Shown here piece after piece: positions 2,387 through 62,692 of a stretch of 64,000 nt of DNA (positions are counted from its first letter, which is position 1; the number at the start of each line of letters is the position of its first letter). The notes under the pieces are model-generated. The model saw nothing but the letters and a program-made list of their open reading frames with translations, was not told the DNA's origin and ran no database searches. The stretch is taken from contig CAZACP010000001.1 of assembly GCA_964483665.1 (NCBI GenBank), positions 6,358 to 70,357 on the forward strand, read 5' to 3'. The translations under genes were made by a program, and so were the position numbers. The DNA comes from an uncultured Candidatus Saccharibacteria bacterium (GTDB taxonomy: Bacteria > Patescibacteriota > Doudnabacteria > UBA920).

Positions 2387-2752
2387 ATGAACACTTTAAG
2401 CTATGATTTGGAAGAACGGACAGCAAAGTTTGGAGAAAGTATTTTAAAATTTTGCAAGTTTTTAAAAAGAGATGTTGTTTTAAATCCTCTTATTTCGCAA
2501 ATTGTAAGATCGTCAACTAGCATCGGGGCTAATTACATGGAAGCAAATGGAGCAAGCTCAAAAAAAGATTTTATTAATAAAATTTATATTTGTAAAAAAG
2601 AATTACAAGAGACAAAACATTGGCTTAGGATGATTGTCGCTTATGTTCCTGAAAATAGAAATGAAATTGTAGTATTATGGAAGGAAGCAAATGAACTCTC
2701 TATGATTTTTAGTAAAATTGCTTATACTTCAAGGCAGAATGCAGAAAATTGA
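2387..2752 (+). CDS. Four-helix-bundle protein (formerly 23S rRNA intervening-sequence protein family)
   Basis: 121 aa; the SIGANYMEA...KHWLRM motif pattern is typical of the TIGR02436 family; inserted between gatA and gatB; flanked by tttaaaattt-type word repeats. Confidence 0.7.
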   Translation: MNTLSYDLEERTAKFGESILKFCKFLKRDVVLNPLISQIVRSSTSIGANYMEANGASSKKDFINKIYICKKELQETKHWLRMIVAYVPENRNEIVVLWKEANELSMIFSKIAYTSRQNAEN

Positions 2753-2778: not shown

Positions 2779-4362
2779 GTGAAAATATTTCCATCATCAG
2801 CCGAATATAGGCCTGTAATTGGATTTGAAATCCATATACAGCTGGCAACTAAGTCTAAAATGTTTGGCCGCGCGGCCAATAATCCCGACCAGAAAGAACC
2901 AAATACAGACATAGACGAGGTTAATACCGGCCAGCCGGGAACTTTGCCGGTGGCCAACAAGGAAGCTATACGCCTTGCGGCCATGGTGGGTCTTGCTTTA
3001 AATTGCCAAATTGATGAATGGAGCAAGTTTGACCGAAAGCACTATTTTTATCCTGACTTGCCCAAAGGCTACCAAATTTCGCAGTATGATAAGCCTATTA
3101 GCAGAGATGGGTATCTTGATCTGGTGATAACCCCCTCATCCGTCCCGACTAAAGTCGGGACACCTTCTCCCTCAAGGGGAGAAGGTGATAATGTTATCCG
3201 CAAGCGGATACATATAACACGTGCTCATTTGGAAGAAGATGCGGGGAAAAATATTCACCCGGAGGGCTTGCCTTATTCATTAGTCGATTATAATAGAGCC
3301 GGCGCTCCGCTTTTAGAAATTGTTACAGAGCCAGAGCTGGAGAGCGGGGAAGACGCAAAAGCTTTTTTAACCGAGCTTAGAAACATTGTCCGGTACCTTG
3401 GCGCCAGCAGCTGCGATATGGAAAAAGGCACAATGCGGGTTGAACCGAACATTAGCGTTAGAAAACCCGGCGAAACCGGTTTGCCAAATTATAAAGTTGA
3501 AGTAAAAAATATTAACAGCATAAAATTTGCCCAGGCTGCCATAGACTACGAAATTGCCCGGCAGATAGAAATTTTAAAAGAAGGCGGCACACCCAAGCAG
3601 GTAACTATGGGTTGGGACGAAAAAAATAGCCGCACGGTTGAGCAGCGTTCTAAAGAAGAAGCCAATGACTATAGGTATTTTCCGGATCCGGATTTGCCGG
3701 TTTTGCAGTTTACTAAAGAGTATTTGGAAGACTTAAAAAATAGAATGCCCGAATTGCCCGCGCAAAAAAGAGCTAGGTTTTTAGAAGAGTTTGGTTTGCC
3801 ACAAGCCGATGTAGAGAATTTAATAAATTGGAAAGAACTTGCCAGCTATTTTGAAGATGTGGTTAGTGAAATAGATGAATGGTGGTCTCAGTTTTATCCT
3901 ATGAATTTATCAACAAAAGAAGTTCATAAACAGAACCGTGAGACTTATATAAAAAGAGCTGCTAATTGGTGTCTGCAAGATTTTAGCGCGCTATTGAATG
4001 AAAAAGGTATTAATCCGATGGATAGCAAGATAACTCCGGAAAATTTTGCAGAATTAATTTTTATGTTCCAGGGAAATAAGATATCTATTACTGCTGCCAA
4101 ACAAGTATTTAAAGTAATGTTTGAAAAAGGCGGTGAGCCGGATAATATTGTTGCGGATTTAGGTTTAGAGCAAACTTCAGACGAAGGCGCTATTTCGGCA
4201 GCAATAGACAAGGTCATCACCGCAAATTCAAAAGCAGTGGCAGACTATAAAGCTGGGCAGGAAAAGAGCTTTGGCTTTTTAGTCGGACAGGCTATGAAAG
4301 AACTTAAAGGCAAAGGGAACCCGGGGGTTATAAACGACATTCTAAAAAAGAAATTGATATAG
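2779..4362 (+). CDS. gatB: Asp/Glu-tRNA amidotransferase subunit B, carrying an in-frame repeat-element insertion
   Basis: GTG start; VIGFEIHIQL...RAHLEEDAGK...DYRYFPDPDLP are GatB hallmarks; about 19 extra residues (TPSSVPTKVGTPSPSRGEG) relative to the usual loop. Confidence 0.95.
   Translation: MKIFPSSAEYRPVIGFEIHIQLATKSKMFGRAANNPDQKEPNTDIDEVNTGQPGTLPVANKEAIRLAAMVGLALNCQIDEWSKFDRKHYFYPDLPKGYQISQYDKPISRDGYLDLVITPSSVPTKVGTPSPSRGEGDNVIRKRIHITRAHLEEDAGKNIHPEGLPYSLVDYNRAGAPLLEIVTEPELESGEDAKAFLTELRNIVRYLGASSCDMEKGTMRVEPNISVRKPGETGLPNYKVEVKNINSIKFAQAAIDYEIARQIEILKEGGTPKQVTMGWDEKNSRTVEQRSKEEANDYRYFPDPDLPVLQFTKEYLEDLKNRMPELPAQKRARFLEEFGLPQADVENLINWKELASYFEDVVSEIDEWWSQFYPMNLSTKEVHKQNRETYIKRAANWCLQDFSALLNEKGINPMDSKITPENFAELIFMFQGNKISITAAKQVFKVMFEKGGEPDNIVADLGLEQTSDEGAISAAIDKVITANSKAVADYKAGQEKSFGFLVGQAMKELKGKGNPGVINDILKKKLI
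3130..3186 (+). repeat. MITE-like hairpin element inside the gatB coding sequence, in frame
   Basis: ccccctcatccg + gtcccgac-taaa-gtcgggac + caccttctccc-tcaa-ggggagaagg; same architecture as the copies at 33136 and 33537. Confidence 0.8.
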
Positions 4363-5461: not shown

Positions 5462-6472
5462 TCATTTTCCTAAAAATTTTTCAACCGGCTTTGCGGTTTT
5501 TGAAAAGTCGGGCGGAAGCCAAATTATTTGTTTACTCTTTCTCCACCACGTAAGTTGGCGTTTTGAATAATGTTTTATGGCGAAAAGCAATTGCGTGAAC
5601 ATTTCATCGTAAGTTAGCTTTTTTTGCAGATACAAAGAAATAAATCGGTATTCAAGGCCAAAACTATTTAAACGTTTCCAAGATAAACCTCTCCCACCTC
5701 TCGCATTCGCTCGAGGCACCCTCTCCATGCTTTGGAGAGGGTGATTGTGTAGGTCTGCGACTTCTTTTATTATTCCTTGCTTAAAGCGCTCTTTAAGGCG
5801 TTTTTCTATTTTTTTATATAAATCTTTTTGATTGGTTTTTATGCCGAGCCATAAAGTAGGGTAGAGGGTAGAGGGCTGGGGCTTGAGTGGGGAAATGGGT
5901 TTTTTTGTTGCCTCGATGATTTCTAACGCGCGGATTAAGCGTCGTTTGTTGAATCTATCAGTGGTACTTGCCCGAGCTGGATCAAGTTTTGCAAGCTGTT
6001 TGTAAAGTTCTTCAGCAGATTTTTTTTCTAAAGCTGCGCGGAGTTTTTTGTTGGGTTTAACATCCGGGAGTTTTTGGTTATAAACGACCGCGTCTATCCA
6101 ATGAGCGGTTCCGCCACATAGAATAGGCAGTTTGCCTCTTTTTAAAACAGCAGAAATTGCTTTTTGCGCGTCCTTCTTAAAAAGCGCGGCAGAGAATTGT
6201 TTTTTTGGGTTTACGTAGTCTATGCAGTGGTGAAAAACGCCTTTGTATCTGTAAAACGCACGGCCGTGTGTTTTTACGGAAATCCATTTGCCCGGGATCT
6301 TGCCCGTGCCTAAATTAAGTCCTTTATAAATTTGCCGGCTGTCTGCGGAAATTATTTCACCGTTAAAACGCTTTGCTAGTTTTACTGCCAGTTCACTTTT
6401 GCCCGAAGAGGTAGGGCCAACAAGTACTAAAATTTTAGATTTTAGATTTAAGATTTTAGATTTTGAAAACAT
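5462..6472 (-). CDS. miaA: tRNA dimethylallyltransferase
   Basis: P-loop GPTSSGKSELAVKLA...IISADSRQIYKGL; the N-terminal SKSKILNLKSKIL is encoded by the tttagattttag word repeat. Confidence 0.9.
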   Translation of the reverse strand: MFSKSKILNLKSKILVLVGPTSSGKSELAVKLAKRFNGEIISADSRQIYKGLNLGTGKIPGKWISVKTHGRAFYRYKGVFHHCIDYVNPKKQFSAALFKKDAQKAISAVLKRGKLPILCGGTAHWIDAVVYNQKLPDVKPNKKLRAALEKKSAEELYKQLAKLDPARASTTDRFNKRRLIRALEIIEATKKPISPLKPQPSTLYPTLWLGIKTNQKDLYKKIEKRLKERFKQGIIKEVADLHNHPLQSMERVPRANARGGRGLSWKRLNSFGLEYRFISLYLQKKLTYDEMFTQLLFAIKHYSKRQLTWWRKSKQIIWLPPDFSKTAKPVEKFLGK

Positions 6473-32685: not shown

Positions 32686-33132
32686 ATGAAAGTTATTTTT
32701 ACAAAAGATGCCCCGGGGCATGGCAAAAAAGGTGAAGTCAAAGAAGTGGCGAGTGGCTTTGCCCAGAATTTTTTAATTGCCAAAGGTTTTGCGCAAGTCG
32801 CAACTCAGCAAATAATTGCGAAAGTAGAAAAGGAAAAAAGGGAACACGATCTTAAGGTATTGAAAGATACTAAGATATTGGAAAATCTAAAAGCGGATTT
32901 AGAGAAAAGAGTTTTTACTGTGGGTGTAAAAGTAGGGGACAAGGGGCAAATTTTTGGCGGGGTGCACGAGAAAGAAATAGCGGAAACAATTGCCGAAAAG
33001 AAATTTATGGTAATAAATAGAAATATGGTTGAAATAGAAAAACCAATTAAAGCCCTGGGGGAACATATGGTAAAAGTTAAGTTAGCGCAGGGAATTATCG
33101 CAAGCGTAAAAATTAAAGTACAGCCGATGTAG
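32686..33132 (+). CDS. rplI: 50S ribosomal protein L9
   Basis: [30 protein letters not shown]. Confidence 0.9.
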
Positions 33133-33135
33133 TAG

Positions 33136-33587
33136 AGCCTTCTCCCGGCGGGGAGAAGGTGCCCGAAGGGCGGATGAGGGTGTTATATGCGCAACATAAA
33201 CAAAAGCTTTGTTAATCTTTCTAGGAATTTAAGAAAAAACGAAACACCTTGGGAAATAAAGTTATGGCAAAGGTTAAGGGGAAGGAAATTTTTAGGATTT
33301 AAATTTAAAAAACAATTGGTTATAGGTAATTATATTTACGACTTTGGCTGCTTTGAAAAGAGACTATTAATTGAACTAGATGGCGGACAATATAGTGAAA
33401 ATGATATTAAAGATAAAGATCAAATTAAGGAAGATTTTGCAAAAAACCAGGGCTATAAAATTATCAGGTTTTGGAATAATGAACTAGACAACAATTTTGA
33501 AGGAGTTTTGGAGACAATTAGAAAAAACTTATTATAACCCTCATCCGGCCGTTGGCCACCTTCTCCCCTAAAGGGAGAAGGCAAACT
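33136..33587. mobile_element. Composite miniature element: DUF559 ORF bracketed by inverted copies of the ccctcatccg/ccttctccc hairpin MITE
   Basis: Left copy 33136..33183 (reverse orientation), right copy 33537..33587; the arms are conserved and the small hairpins differ but remain stems. Confidence 0.7.
33187..33537 (+). CDS. DUF559 (Vsr-like endonuclease-fold) domain protein
   Basis: WEIKLWQRLRGRKFLGFKFKKQ...IELDGGQY matches the DUF559 pattern. Confidence 0.7.
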   Translation: MRNINKSFVNLSRNLRKNETPWEIKLWQRLRGRKFLGFKFKKQLVIGNYIYDFGCFEKRLLIELDGGQYSENDIKDKDQIKEDFAKNQGYKIIRFWNNELDNNFEGVLETIRKNLL

Positions 33588-33608
33588 AACATCCGTTTTG
33601 CTAAAATT

Positions 33609-35129
33609 ATGGAATCTTTTCCTCCAATTCATGAAATAGACCACCCGGCAATGCCAAAGTCCAGGCTTAATAGCTTGTTGATTATTTTAATGGTGACTTT
33701 ATTTTTAAGCGGCGGAGCTTTAATAGTTCTAAAGCAAATAGACACTTACCACAGAAAGCAGCTATATATAGCCACTAATGCCGCTTTGCCGGTGCATAAA
33801 GCCAAATTAACAAAATCCAATGTAGAAGTAAAAACTTTTGTGAGTCCTGAGTTTGGTTTTGTTCAGGAGTATACAGAGTTTTATGAGTCATACGAAATAA
33901 GCCCAATCGAAGCTTTTCCGGTTTTAAACTATGAAAAAGGACCAAAAGGCTACAAAAAAGGCTACAGGTTTGCTTCCTCGTTAAGCAGCGTGTTTTGTCC
34001 GGTTTTAGAAGTTTTGGTCTACTCAACCGAAGAAAAAACCGCGGCAAATTGGTTAAAGGTTAATACCGATATAAAAGGAGCTTTTGCAAGTCAGTCCGCA
34101 GAAAATATAAATCAGATTGAGTTTATAAAGCTTACGGGTCCTGGGGGCGATATGGTTCCAAGTGAGGTGTATTTGGCTTTGGCAAATAAGAATTTATACC
34201 AGTTAAATTTAAACTTTGGCCTTAAAGGCGACGCAGTAGACCCTAAATGCGGCAATATACTTTCGGGCTTTAAATTAACCGGTTTAACATCAGCAGAATG
34301 GAAAACATATAAGAATGAGGAATATGGGTTTGAGATGAAAATTCCATCCGAGTGGATAGTTGAAGAAACTCCTTACACGGTAATGTTTAGTACCCCAGAA
34401 AATAAAAAGCTTGCAGAAGAAAACAAAAAGAATTGCGAGACCGGAAAAAATGAATGCAACCCGGAATTTAATTCCCCGCACATGTTTTTTTCAAACAAAG
34501 ATTATTCCAAAACCGATATTATTCAACAGGAATTTAATATTAATGTTAATGGAACAGTTTGGTACAAGTACGCAATACCTAGTTTAGGTGACCCTTGGTA
34601 TTACAAAATTGAACACAATAACAAAATATACAATTTCATAATAAAAAAAGAACAATTCGAGCCTATTTTCTTTCAAATCCTCTCAACCTTAAGATTTACT
34701 GAAAAAGCTGACACCTCAACCTGGAAAACTTATAGGAATGAGGAATATGGATTTGAGTTTAAGTATCCTTTAGATTTTACAATTTTTGAAGGCGATAGCT
34801 ATCAACTACAGGGAGCAAAAAATGAATTAGTAGACGTTTTTTCAGTGCAGATCATAAACAATTCTAACAAAGAAGTGAAGTTAACGTATCTAATTAATAC
34901 TCCAGGTTCAGGATGTGGAGAAGGTGCTGAAAGAATTTCATCAATAAGTATGGAGGCTAGTAGTTTAGGAATAACAAAAGATGTATATTTATGGGGCATT
35001 TCTGGTAGTAAATGTTTTGATTACTCAGGATTTGGAAAAGGTTACATAATTGCTTCAATCCCAAAAAATTATGGTAATTTTGAATCTGTTTTTGACAAAA
35101 TAGTTTTGTCTATTAAATTTACTAAATAA
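33609..35129 (+). CDS. Membrane-anchored extracytoplasmic protein with a duplicated WKTY(K/R)NEEYGFE(M/F)K motif
   Basis: TM LLIILMVTLFLSGGALIVL; two repeat copies about 140 aa apart; the listed ORF start overlaps the MITE, so I trimmed it to MESFPP. Confidence 0.55.
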   Translation: MESFPPIHEIDHPAMPKSRLNSLLIILMVTLFLSGGALIVLKQIDTYHRKQLYIATNAALPVHKAKLTKSNVEVKTFVSPEFGFVQEYTEFYESYEISPIEAFPVLNYEKGPKGYKKGYRFASSLSSVFCPVLEVLVYSTEEKTAANWLKVNTDIKGAFASQSAENINQIEFIKLTGPGGDMVPSEVYLALANKNLYQLNLNFGLKGDAVDPKCGNILSGFKLTGLTSAEWKTYKNEEYGFEMKIPSEWIVEETPYTVMFSTPENKKLAEENKKNCETGKNECNPEFNSPHMFFSNKDYSKTDIIQQEFNINVNGTVWYKYAIPSLGDPWYYKIEHNNKIYNFIIKKEQFEPIFFQILSTLRFTEKADTSTWKTYRNEEYGFEFKYPLDFTIFEGDSYQLQGAKNELVDVFSVQIINNSNKEVKLTYLINTPGSGCGEGAERISSISMEASSLGITKDVYLWGISGSKCFDYSGFGKGYIIASIPKNYGNFESVFDKIVLSIKFTK

Positions 35130-62462: not shown

Positions 62463-62692
62463 TTAAAATCCCCTCTTTTTTTAAAAGAGGGGCTGGGGTG
62501 AGGTTGTAAGTTAATTTATAACCTCGCCCCGGAAAACTTTTAGTCCGGATTTAAAAACAAAACGCCCTTTATGTCTAGAGCATAAGCGGGGCGTTTTAAT
62601 TTGTTTAAATTTTCGACAGGACAATTCGCGCCGTGCCCCGTACCCTTCTTCGTGGTACTGGGGCGAATTGTCCAGTCAAATTAAATGCCGAG
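62463..62692. other. GC-rich nested-hairpin region between convergent genes (terminators and/or a small structured RNA)
   Basis: Four stems including ggacaattcgc...gcgaattgtcc and cccctct...agagggg. Confidence 0.35.

Follow-up and report, generated by a model that had tools for sequence, protein, structure and literature searches.

What a small nuclease gene is doing between two inverted copies of a structured repeat, immediately downstream of the ribosomal protein gene rplI, is the question raised by a locus of an uncultured Candidatus Saccharibacteria bacterium (GTDB lineage Patescibacteriota; Doudnabacteria; UBA920). The locus was analysed within a stretch of 64,000 nucleotides (nt) of contig CAZACP010000001.1 (positions 6,358 to 70,357; the whole stretch is referred to below as the window). 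The gene encodes a protein of 116 amino acids belonging to the DUF559 family and has a repeat arm of approximately 48 nt, inverted with respect to the other, on either side. Our preferred explanation, to which a probability of roughly 0.55 was assigned, is that gene and arms form a selfish nuclease-plus-repeat cassette in which the repeats would be the substrate of the enzyme; the exact route of its spread is proposed with less confidence. Both components were known separately, and it is the connection between the repeats and DUF559 that appears to be new.

A DUF559 gene between inverted arms at the rplI junction

The features of the locus are as follows.

32686..33132, plus strand: rplI, encoding ribosomal protein L9 (Pfam PF01281 and PF03948, the L9 N and C domains)
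33137..33181, plus strand: left arm, consisting of a main hairpin, a mini-hairpin and a third purine block (predicted DNA fold -13.6 kcal/mol, z -4.0)
33187..33537, plus strand: DUF559 nuclease gene, 116 amino acids, predicted Vsr-fold PD-(D/E)XK enzyme (PF04480, E 1e-33)
33537..33582, minus strand: right arm, the reverse complement of the left arm (predicted DNA fold -13.1 kcal/mol, z -4.7)
33552..33608, plus strand: spurious TTG-start N-terminal extension of the downstream 506-amino-acid PsbP-like gene (judged from the starts of homologues)
33083..33603, no strand: tract of high identity (91-98%) to the distantly related genome L103, read as a recently exchanged segment (sliding-window identities)

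A preliminary description of this DNA, made from the sequence alone, had placed inverted copies of one repeat around the 116-amino-acid open reading frame (ORF), directly behind the rplI stop codon and overlapping a spurious N-terminus of the next gene, and each of these points was borne out. The repeat finder returned an inverted repeat of 32 nt with 88% complementarity (33150-33181 and 33537-33568), and when their own hairpins are included the arms span 33137-33181 and 33537-33582. In the left arm the main hairpin (33138-33159, CCTTCTCCC-GGCG-GGGAGAAGG) starts 5 nt beyond the rplI stop codon and is followed by a mini-hairpin (33161-33171, GCCCGAAGGGC) and a gene-proximal third purine block (33172-33180, GGATGAGGG), which provides a Shine-Dalgarno-like GAGGG about 8 nt 5' of the DUF559 ATG. 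The right arm starts on the final base of the DUF559 stop codon (TAA directly followed by CCCTCATCC), and its third block (33538-33546, CCCTCATCC), mini-hairpin (33547-33557, GGCCGTTGGCC) and main hairpin (33559-33581) follow in mirrored order. An ORF of 525 amino acids running from a TTG at 33552 overlaps this arm; its first 19 codons are spurious and the real start is the ATG at 33609, as given by most gene calls and by all homologues (contigs L101, L103, L105 and L106).

Both arms, taken as single-stranded DNA, were predicted to fold at about -13 kcal/mol (z about -4 to -4.7 compared to shuffles). When the arm motifs were searched for in the 64 kb, only a third copy was found beyond the two arms, and there were no matches in 100 shuffles. 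A promoter/terminator scan of the cassette gave no convincing promoter for the DUF559 gene, and the arms have no T-run and are not terminator-like. No Rfam match was obtained for the whole window or, under permissive settings, around the cassette.

The repeat is a variant of the Box C / PIT / TMECO family

The preliminary description had called the repeat a miniature inverted-repeat transposable element (MITE) with transposon terminal inverted repeats, and had not recognised that the family was already described. A full-text literature search with the core repeat sequences led to the papers on an Escherichia coli element of the form CCCTCTCCC-loop-GGGAGAGGG-TTA/CCG-GGGTGAGGG (Holder et al. 2015, PMC4666352; Kaplan et al. 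2016, PMC5100583). Over time it has been named Box C, PIT (potential intrastrand triplex) element, TMECO, HPGQ and 'G-quadruplex-hairpin-duplex switch'; it is known from E. coli and more than 260 other genomes, and E. coli K-12 has 23 copies, of which five are inverted pairs with their third blocks facing (PMC4666352; PMC5100583). According to Holder et al. (PMC4666352), transposases and integrases were never found near the repeats, which were always intergenic. TMECO repeats have been reported as linked with local genomic instability, earlier work cited in the literature found neither promoter nor terminator activity for the E. coli repeats, and a triplex or G-quadruplex has been obtained in vitro for the E. 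coli sequence only, in vivo support being absent there.

The window repeat is a variant-architecture member of this family and not a strict MITE; it was assigned there because it shares the three-block logic of the E. coli element, namely a pyrimidine arm, a loop and a purine arm followed by a third purine block that mirrors the stem. The pyrimidine arm and the complementary purine arm of about 9 bp take the form CCTTCTCCC-N4/5-GGGAGAAGG in three window copies and CCCTCTCC/GGAGAGGG in a fourth. Read in reverse, the third block GGATGAGGG differs from GGGAGAAGG at a single position (the central A to T), and the same A to T mirror relation holds between GGGTGAGGG and GGGAGAGGG in TMECO. All purine-motif triads would be allowed for the window third block, and in all fetched loci mirror matches of a third block within 40 nt of the stem outnumbered direct ones by 249 to 66. 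Both sets of repeats are also G/C-rich and interspersed, and occur singly or in inverted pairs whose third blocks face each other.

The window copies differ from the E. coli element in their A/T-shifted stem (CCTTCTCCC) and their third block (GGATGAGGG), and above all in what separates the two: where E. coli has a 3-nt TTA or CCG loop, the window copies have a mini-hairpin of 11-20 nt, the spacer as a whole measuring 12-21 nt against the 1-6 nt of a short second loop. A stem of at least 4 bp could be formed by 80% of 87 distinct metagenome spacers, compared to 11% of shuffles, and the stem sequences vary among the 87. The mini-hairpin is conserved in predicted structure and not in sequence, and the predicted folded structure of the arms is under selection. 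Many of the loops belong to the GCGAAGC type, which forms a DNA mini-hairpin of unusual stability. A further difference lies in genomic position, as the E. coli copies are reported to be always intergenic and without a mobility gene, whereas the window has two in-frame intragenic copies and two that flank a nuclease gene.

The MITE interpretation was not supported. Target-site duplications were looked for at the outer edges of the cassette and none was found, the outer flanks (TAGAG on the left and CAAAC on the right) sharing no direct repeat; the rplI-downstream spacer was replaced, not inserted into (see below); and no transposase was found in these loci, where the sole associated gene encodes a PD-(D/E)XK nuclease.

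The gene-repeat association recurs across bacterial phyla

Loci were collected by a scan of one genome per GTDB species, which yielded 80 loci holding the nearest relatives of the window protein, not all of PF04480, and repeats were called in them with a heuristic detector. They come from Patescibacteria, Melainabacteria, several classes of Proteobacteria (including Legionella and Neisseria), Deinococcus, Nitrospirota and others. When the 220 nt upstream of the gene were aligned with the reverse complement of the 220 nt downstream, the median score was 46, compared to 18 for control windows arranged identically but displaced by 1.5-2.5 kb, and 66 of 77 loci exceeded the control's 95th percentile for a flanking inverted repeat. 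Repeat density was 6.18 per kb within about 185 nt of the DUF559 ends and 0.175 per kb elsewhere (35-fold). Repeats were present at both ends of 55 of 72 DUF559 genes (76%) compared to 1 of 153 control ORFs (0.7%), the controls being other ORFs of at least 200 amino acids in the same loci. The arrangement is general across bacterial phyla and specific to the DUF559 gene.

The arms at the other loci share the three-block architecture, those of Legionella being nearly identical to the window's. With regard to orientation, both third blocks face the gene in 39 of the 80 loci, which is the commonest arrangement and the geometry of the gene-less E. coli doublets, while both point outward in 7 and the orientation is mixed in 14. 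The DUF559 gene is closely enclosed by the arms, and in many cases its stop codon falls within the right arm; C-terminal tails such as HPPLTPPIKGGEKD, common among homologues, are the product of read-through into the downstream repeat. No consistent rule placing type A upstream and type B downstream, as in the E. coli A+B doublets, was found.

These figures bear on the possibility that generic extragenic hairpins merely settle at gene ends, DUF559 being a small gene that tolerates them, a case close to the one that the preliminary description had set against its own proposal (ubiquitous hairpins unrelated to the gene). The repeats are indeed widespread, mostly without an adjacent gene, and often lie just after stop codons. 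However, coincidence is already contradicted by the control ORFs, and the 35-fold higher density near the gene and the joint transfer of arms and gene (see below) also stand against it; the repeats proved widespread and yet strongly tied to DUF559, and we regard coincidence as most improbable.

A programmed inversion switch, in which the inverted repeats would flip the DUF559 gene as a form of phase variation, was judged very improbable as well. In its favour, a domain-wide screen for inversions between inverted repeats reported 'DUF559 domain-containing protein' as enriched among its predicted targets (odds ratio 14); the flanking repeats described here are enough to explain this enrichment. 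In addition, there is no invertase gene nearby, and the gene has the same orientation relative to rplI in all of about 40 same-species contigs.

In the reverse direction, from repeat to gene, the association is weak, as it is for REP and RAYT (repetitive extragenic palindromic sequences and the REP-associated tyrosine transposases): among the metagenome hairpins of this subfamily with enough flank, 6 of 110 adjoin a DUF559 gene, and 15 clear gene-less doublets were seen. DUF559 is rarely carried by plasmids (29 of 72,556 records) or phages (2 of 50,697 records), which are not its main vehicle. The PADLOC defence-system models gave only weak partial matches, to the nuclease domains of large proteins. 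The literature accessible without subscription yielded no paper that links Box C-type repeats to a DUF559 nuclease.

In Enterobacter pasteurii (locus L045, 4318-4395) the DUF559 gene reads directly into a type-A Box C repeat, which is followed by a second repeat in opposite orientation with third blocks outward; no upstream arm was recognisable at this locus. It was considered together with E. coli as a possible occupied/empty doublet pair and rejected, because only the repeat portion matched, at unrelated loci such as wcaA-wzc.

Exchange of the cassette between two lineages

All contigs encoding identical proteins have the same gene arrangement as the window. More distant relatives were located via L9 and the downstream gene and were assigned to clades by housekeeping genes, clade A consisting of the window, L105 and L101 (PyrG 94-96% identical in amino acids) and clade B of L103 and L106 (FtsX 97%). 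Between the clades the flanking genes (ftsX, rplI, pyrG) are 68-76% identical at the nucleotide level. The junction downstream of rplI, which the preliminary description had proposed for comparison among relatives, is occupied in the window (clade A) and in L103 (clade B) and empty in L105, L106 and L108, where the spacer is AT-rich and without arms; L101 (clade A) is empty too on the side that is present. The empty spacer measures 123 nt and is longer in L108.

The cassettes of the window and L103 are 94.4% identical in nucleotides. The tract of 91-98% identity is limited to approximately 33083-33603, that is, to the cassette with about 50 nt of the rplI 3' end and about 16 nt downstream, and within rplI identity to L103 is 91% in 33083-33127 against 53-89% further upstream. 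A second contig (L104), identical to L103 but assembled separately and obtained from another source, although possibly from the same sample, confirmed the L103 arrangement. Because the cassette is 94.4% identical compared to 68-76% for the flanks, and sister genomes are empty and without repeats, the simplest reading is that the cassette, arms included, was recently exchanged laterally into the same site of two lineages together with a short co-converted flank. Of the small mobile selfish element envisaged in the preliminary description, the part that stands is that nuclease gene and arms move as one cassette, and the part that is not supported is the transposon; a DUF559 gene at this locus without flanking repeats, which would have told against it, was not encountered, the related occupied genome L103 having kept them. 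On contig L102 a 75%-identical DUF559 gene with the same arms adjoins a different gene, so the cassette also changes locus over longer times.

These alleles also bear on a route by which the gene homes into a pre-existing palindromic target: a gene-less doublet would be the recognition site, the gene, a free-standing homing endonuclease gene, would have been inserted at its centre, and the arms would be the split target and no part of the mobile unit. Gene-less doublets (E. coli hrpB-mrcB, the 15 metagenome doublets and 62469-62550 of the window) share the geometry with third blocks inward that is seen in 39 of 80 loci, the gene is a tight fit between the arms, and the closest characterised fold is that of a homing endonuclease. 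On the other hand, the empty alleles at the rplI site are armless, which implies that the arms arrived with the gene; third blocks are both outward in 7 loci and mixed in 14; and no matched pair of occupied and empty doublets was found at one locus. We consider this route unlikely.

Two further observations were made at this site. On L108 (634-735) a different insertion of about 100 nt, bounded by a 13-nt inverted repeat (CCTGCCCGCCAAA ... TTTGGCAGGCGGG), occupies the same spacer, and comparison with L105 and L106 shows clean junctions with TTTA on one side and GAAATT on the other; the rplI-downstream spacer seems to attract small elements. In addition, the L9 proteins of the window and its sister L105 share only 72.6% identity, though FtsX is 91.5% and PyrG 94% identical, and rplI itself may, from these identities, have been affected by recombination around the cassette.

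The DUF559 protein and its Y69 allele

The protein matches PF04480 (DUF559) at E 1.1e-33 (115.7 bits, cut-off 20.6); its Pfam matches are DUF559 and MTES_1575 only, and the NCBIfam model PRK09767 (YcjD) is matched at E 3e-27, under its equivalog cut-off. An AlphaFold2 model (predicted local distance difference test 88.3, predicted template modelling (TM) score 0.80) has a predicted Vsr-like fold. Ranked by Foldseek, the best structure was 3hrl (E 4e-8), followed by the catalytic domain of I-Bth0305I (3r3p, E 1.3e-4, TM 0.58-0.75) and by Vsr (1vsr, E 0.03); by sequence (phmmer against PDB, E up to 1), 3hrl alone was found (E 8e-19) and 3r3p was not. Mitochondrial ribosome proteins of apicomplexans and ciliates (Toxoplasma 9i05 and 9g6k; Tetrahymena 6z1p) were also better matches to the DUF559 fold than Vsr.

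The family-invariant residues D52, E63, D65 and D78, presumed to be catalytic, are all present in the window allele. H69 is nearly invariant in the family and was found in 79 of 79 related loci with the motif, and the window allele has Y69, leaving the conserved presumed catalytic set (D52, E63, D65, H69, D78) incomplete. A population variant (P0001) differs from the window protein solely by H69, and among same-species contigs codon 69 is TAT (Tyr) in 14 and CAT (His) in 4. In a profile alignment D52 lies opposite Vsr D51, and H69 falls within Vsr's histidine cluster; D51 and H69 of Vsr have catalytic roles. Since Y69 replaces a histidine that is invariant in 79 of 79 relatives, the copy in the window is probably impaired or inactive. 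Such an allele fits a selfish gene that is past its spread, or selection against a harmful nuclease.

Given the fold, a very-short-patch mismatch-repair endonuclease of the Vsr type had to be considered; the Joint Genome Institute (JGI) name of the protein is 'very-short-patch-repair endonuclease', and a Caulobacter DUF559 protein has been proposed in the literature to act like Vsr. Nevertheless, there is no adjacent cytosine methyltransferase gene, the neighbours being rplI and the PsbP-like gene, whereas in E. coli vsr overlaps dcm. The Pfam matches listed at E up to 0.01 did not include PF03852, an alignment to E. coli Vsr with hhalign reached only 60% probability, and I-Bth0305I outranks Vsr in the fold search. 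A role of this type is hardly to be expected.

E. coli ycjD as a relative of the cassette

YcjD of E. coli (b1289) is 46% identical to the window protein (E 6e-32) and belongs to the same family, as does NGO0050 of Neisseria gonorrhoeae, whose structure is the 3hrl matched above. The ycjD stop codon sits inside a degenerate repeat hairpin, and TMECO no. 9 of Holder's table (PMC4666352) lies 168 nt downstream; unlike the window gene, ycjD has no recognisable upstream arm of the window type. Between ycjD and TMECO no. 9 lies a duplicated piece of the 3' end of a DUF559 gene (..ETVLENIRQGLNR..), this region (locus L230, 4205-4430) corresponding to E. coli K-12 1,351,204-1,351,430 on the minus strand. 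A gene-less repeat doublet with a 16-nt spacer is found at hrpB-mrcB. A 2026 paper reports that, in independent lineages of E. coli, the ycjD allele takes the place of the eefRABCD operon, between sapF and fabI.

The conservation of ycjD across E. coli phylogroups A, B1 and C favours a different explanation, namely that the nuclease is domesticated and benefits the host by processing or limiting non-B DNA formed by the repeats, the arms being its own operator or expression signals. The single copy in the window would agree with this, as would the Shine-Dalgarno-like sequence given by the left arm, the right arm that abuts the stop codon, and the reported link of TMECO repeats with local genomic instability. 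Against it, the gene is patchy among sister genomes and the cassette was laterally exchanged, the majority allele of the population has H69Y at a residue that is otherwise invariant, which is hard to square with strong purifying selection, and earlier work found no promoter or terminator activity of the repeats in E. coli. Domestication was judged improbable.

Proposed mechanism and comparison with known systems

Under the selfish-cassette explanation, the DUF559 nuclease would recognise the folded repeat (two hairpins and the mirror third block) and nick or cut there; the break would be repaired by copying from another repeat-bearing locus or allele, and in this way the repeats and the gene enclosed by them would spread. 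The route would be recombination-dependent and homing-like and not transposition, since a PD-(D/E)XK enzyme of 116 amino acids cannot rejoin DNA. Gene-less copies would be served in trans by the nuclease gene, as REP/REPIN sequences are by RAYT.

The resemblance to REP/REPIN-RAYT lies in a short structured repeat with many gene-less copies, as singles and inverted doublets, and in an enzyme gene flanked by inverted copies of the dispersed repeat (here 55 of 72 loci). RAYTs are HUH/Y1 transposases (PF01797), which cut and rejoin single-stranded DNA; the window enzyme differs in being a nuclease unable to ligate, with no HUH/Y1 match in Pfam, and its repeat differs in carrying a third, mirror-symmetric block.

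Homing endonuclease genes offer the other parallel: I-Bth0305I is the second-best structural match of the nuclease model, the same site is occupied in separate lineages with empty sister alleles, the cassette is far more similar than its flanks with a short co-converted flank, and a probable inactivating allele (Y69) is segregating. The cassette differs from them in having no intron or intein and in being flanked by its own inverted repeats, and it was not inserted precisely into a conserved site, the empty alleles carrying an unrelated 123-nt spacer.

A number of points weigh against the selfish-cassette explanation. The occupied allele replaces the whole 123-nt spacer and leaves no target-site duplication, and transfer was deduced from a comparison of two occupied genomes with four empty ones. 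Where populations co-occur, ordinary homologous recombination between them could by itself have transferred the cassette, with no part played by the nuclease. Approximately 95% of repeat copies have no adjacent gene. The subtype of the arms (GGATGRGG or GGGTGRGG) did not co-cluster with protein similarity, one of four nearest neighbours sharing the subtype in what is a small sample. Finally, cleavage of these repeats by a stand-alone DUF559 protein is a prediction, and so is the copying, which would have to rely on host repair, the enzyme being unable to ligate.

The wider proposal, that throughout Bacteria the Box C / PIT / TMECO repeats have their cognate nucleases in stand-alone DUF559 proteins, as a second partnership of the REPIN/RAYT kind in which a homing-endonuclease-like PD-(D/E)XK enzyme would recognise folded hairpin/triplex DNA and use break repair to spread the repeats and itself, is advanced tentatively and at somewhat less than even odds. 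These repeats are conserved in hundreds of bacterial genomes and linked to local instability, and a nuclease gene nested between them in most of the loci examined provides a concrete candidate enzyme for their spread. If true, it would explain how repeats that have been a puzzle since the 1990s arose, why they are conserved and why they are locally unstable, and would give a function to a very large family so far listed as a 'domain of unknown function'; E. coli K-12, with ycjD and TMECO no. 9, would be a tractable model.

Other repeat copies and inserts in the window

Five repeat units were detectable in the 64 kb, where 13 register hits were obtained compared to 0.35 expected from shuffles. 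Those outside the cassette are as follows.

3133..3185, minus strand: solo copy of the same subfamily as the arms, in frame inside gatB (2779..4362, plus strand) (predicted DNA fold -19.3 kcal/mol, z -6.3)
5688..5742, minus strand: solo copy of a second subfamily, in frame inside miaA (5462..6472, minus strand) (predicted DNA fold z -5.0)
62469..62550, no strand: degenerate gene-less doublet of a third subfamily, intergenic between convergent genes (repeat detector)

The solo copy in gatB, already pointed out in the preliminary description, is real and in frame; the miaA copy and the doublet had been missed. The gatB copy encodes ..TPSSVPTKVGTPSPSRGEG.. and forms an insert of about 19 amino acids compared to the GatB structure 3h0l_B. 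The 8-nt sequence GGTGATAA is present at both of its edges (3123-3130 and 3184-3191); half of it belongs to the element consensus, so that it cannot be taken as a secure target-site duplication. The miaA copy has the CCCTCTCC/GGAGAGGG stem, its own mini-hairpin and the third block GGGAGAG, and adds about 18 amino acids compared to the MiaA structure 2qgn_A. The repeats are evidently tolerable in frame inside essential genes of reduced genomes (gatB, miaA). The doublet reads CCCCTCTT..AAGAGGGG-CT-GGGGTGAGG, a 17-nt spacer and CCTCGCCCC.., with third blocks facing, and the sequences at its inner ends (GAGGTTGTAAG.../...TTTATAACCTC) are similar to those at the inner junctions of the DUF559 cassette.

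In-frame palindromic repeats were reportedly described in Rickettsia by Ogata and colleagues in 2000. The Rickettsia palindromic elements are likewise short palindromic repeats lying in frame in the housekeeping genes of a small genome; their sequence is unrelated to the window repeats, and to our knowledge no nuclease gene is linked to them.

Between gatA and gatB (2387-2752, plus strand) there is a gene for a 121-amino-acid 'four helix bundle protein' (TIGR02436, E 2e-21), of a family known from intervening sequences of 23S rRNA; it may be another small inserted gene.

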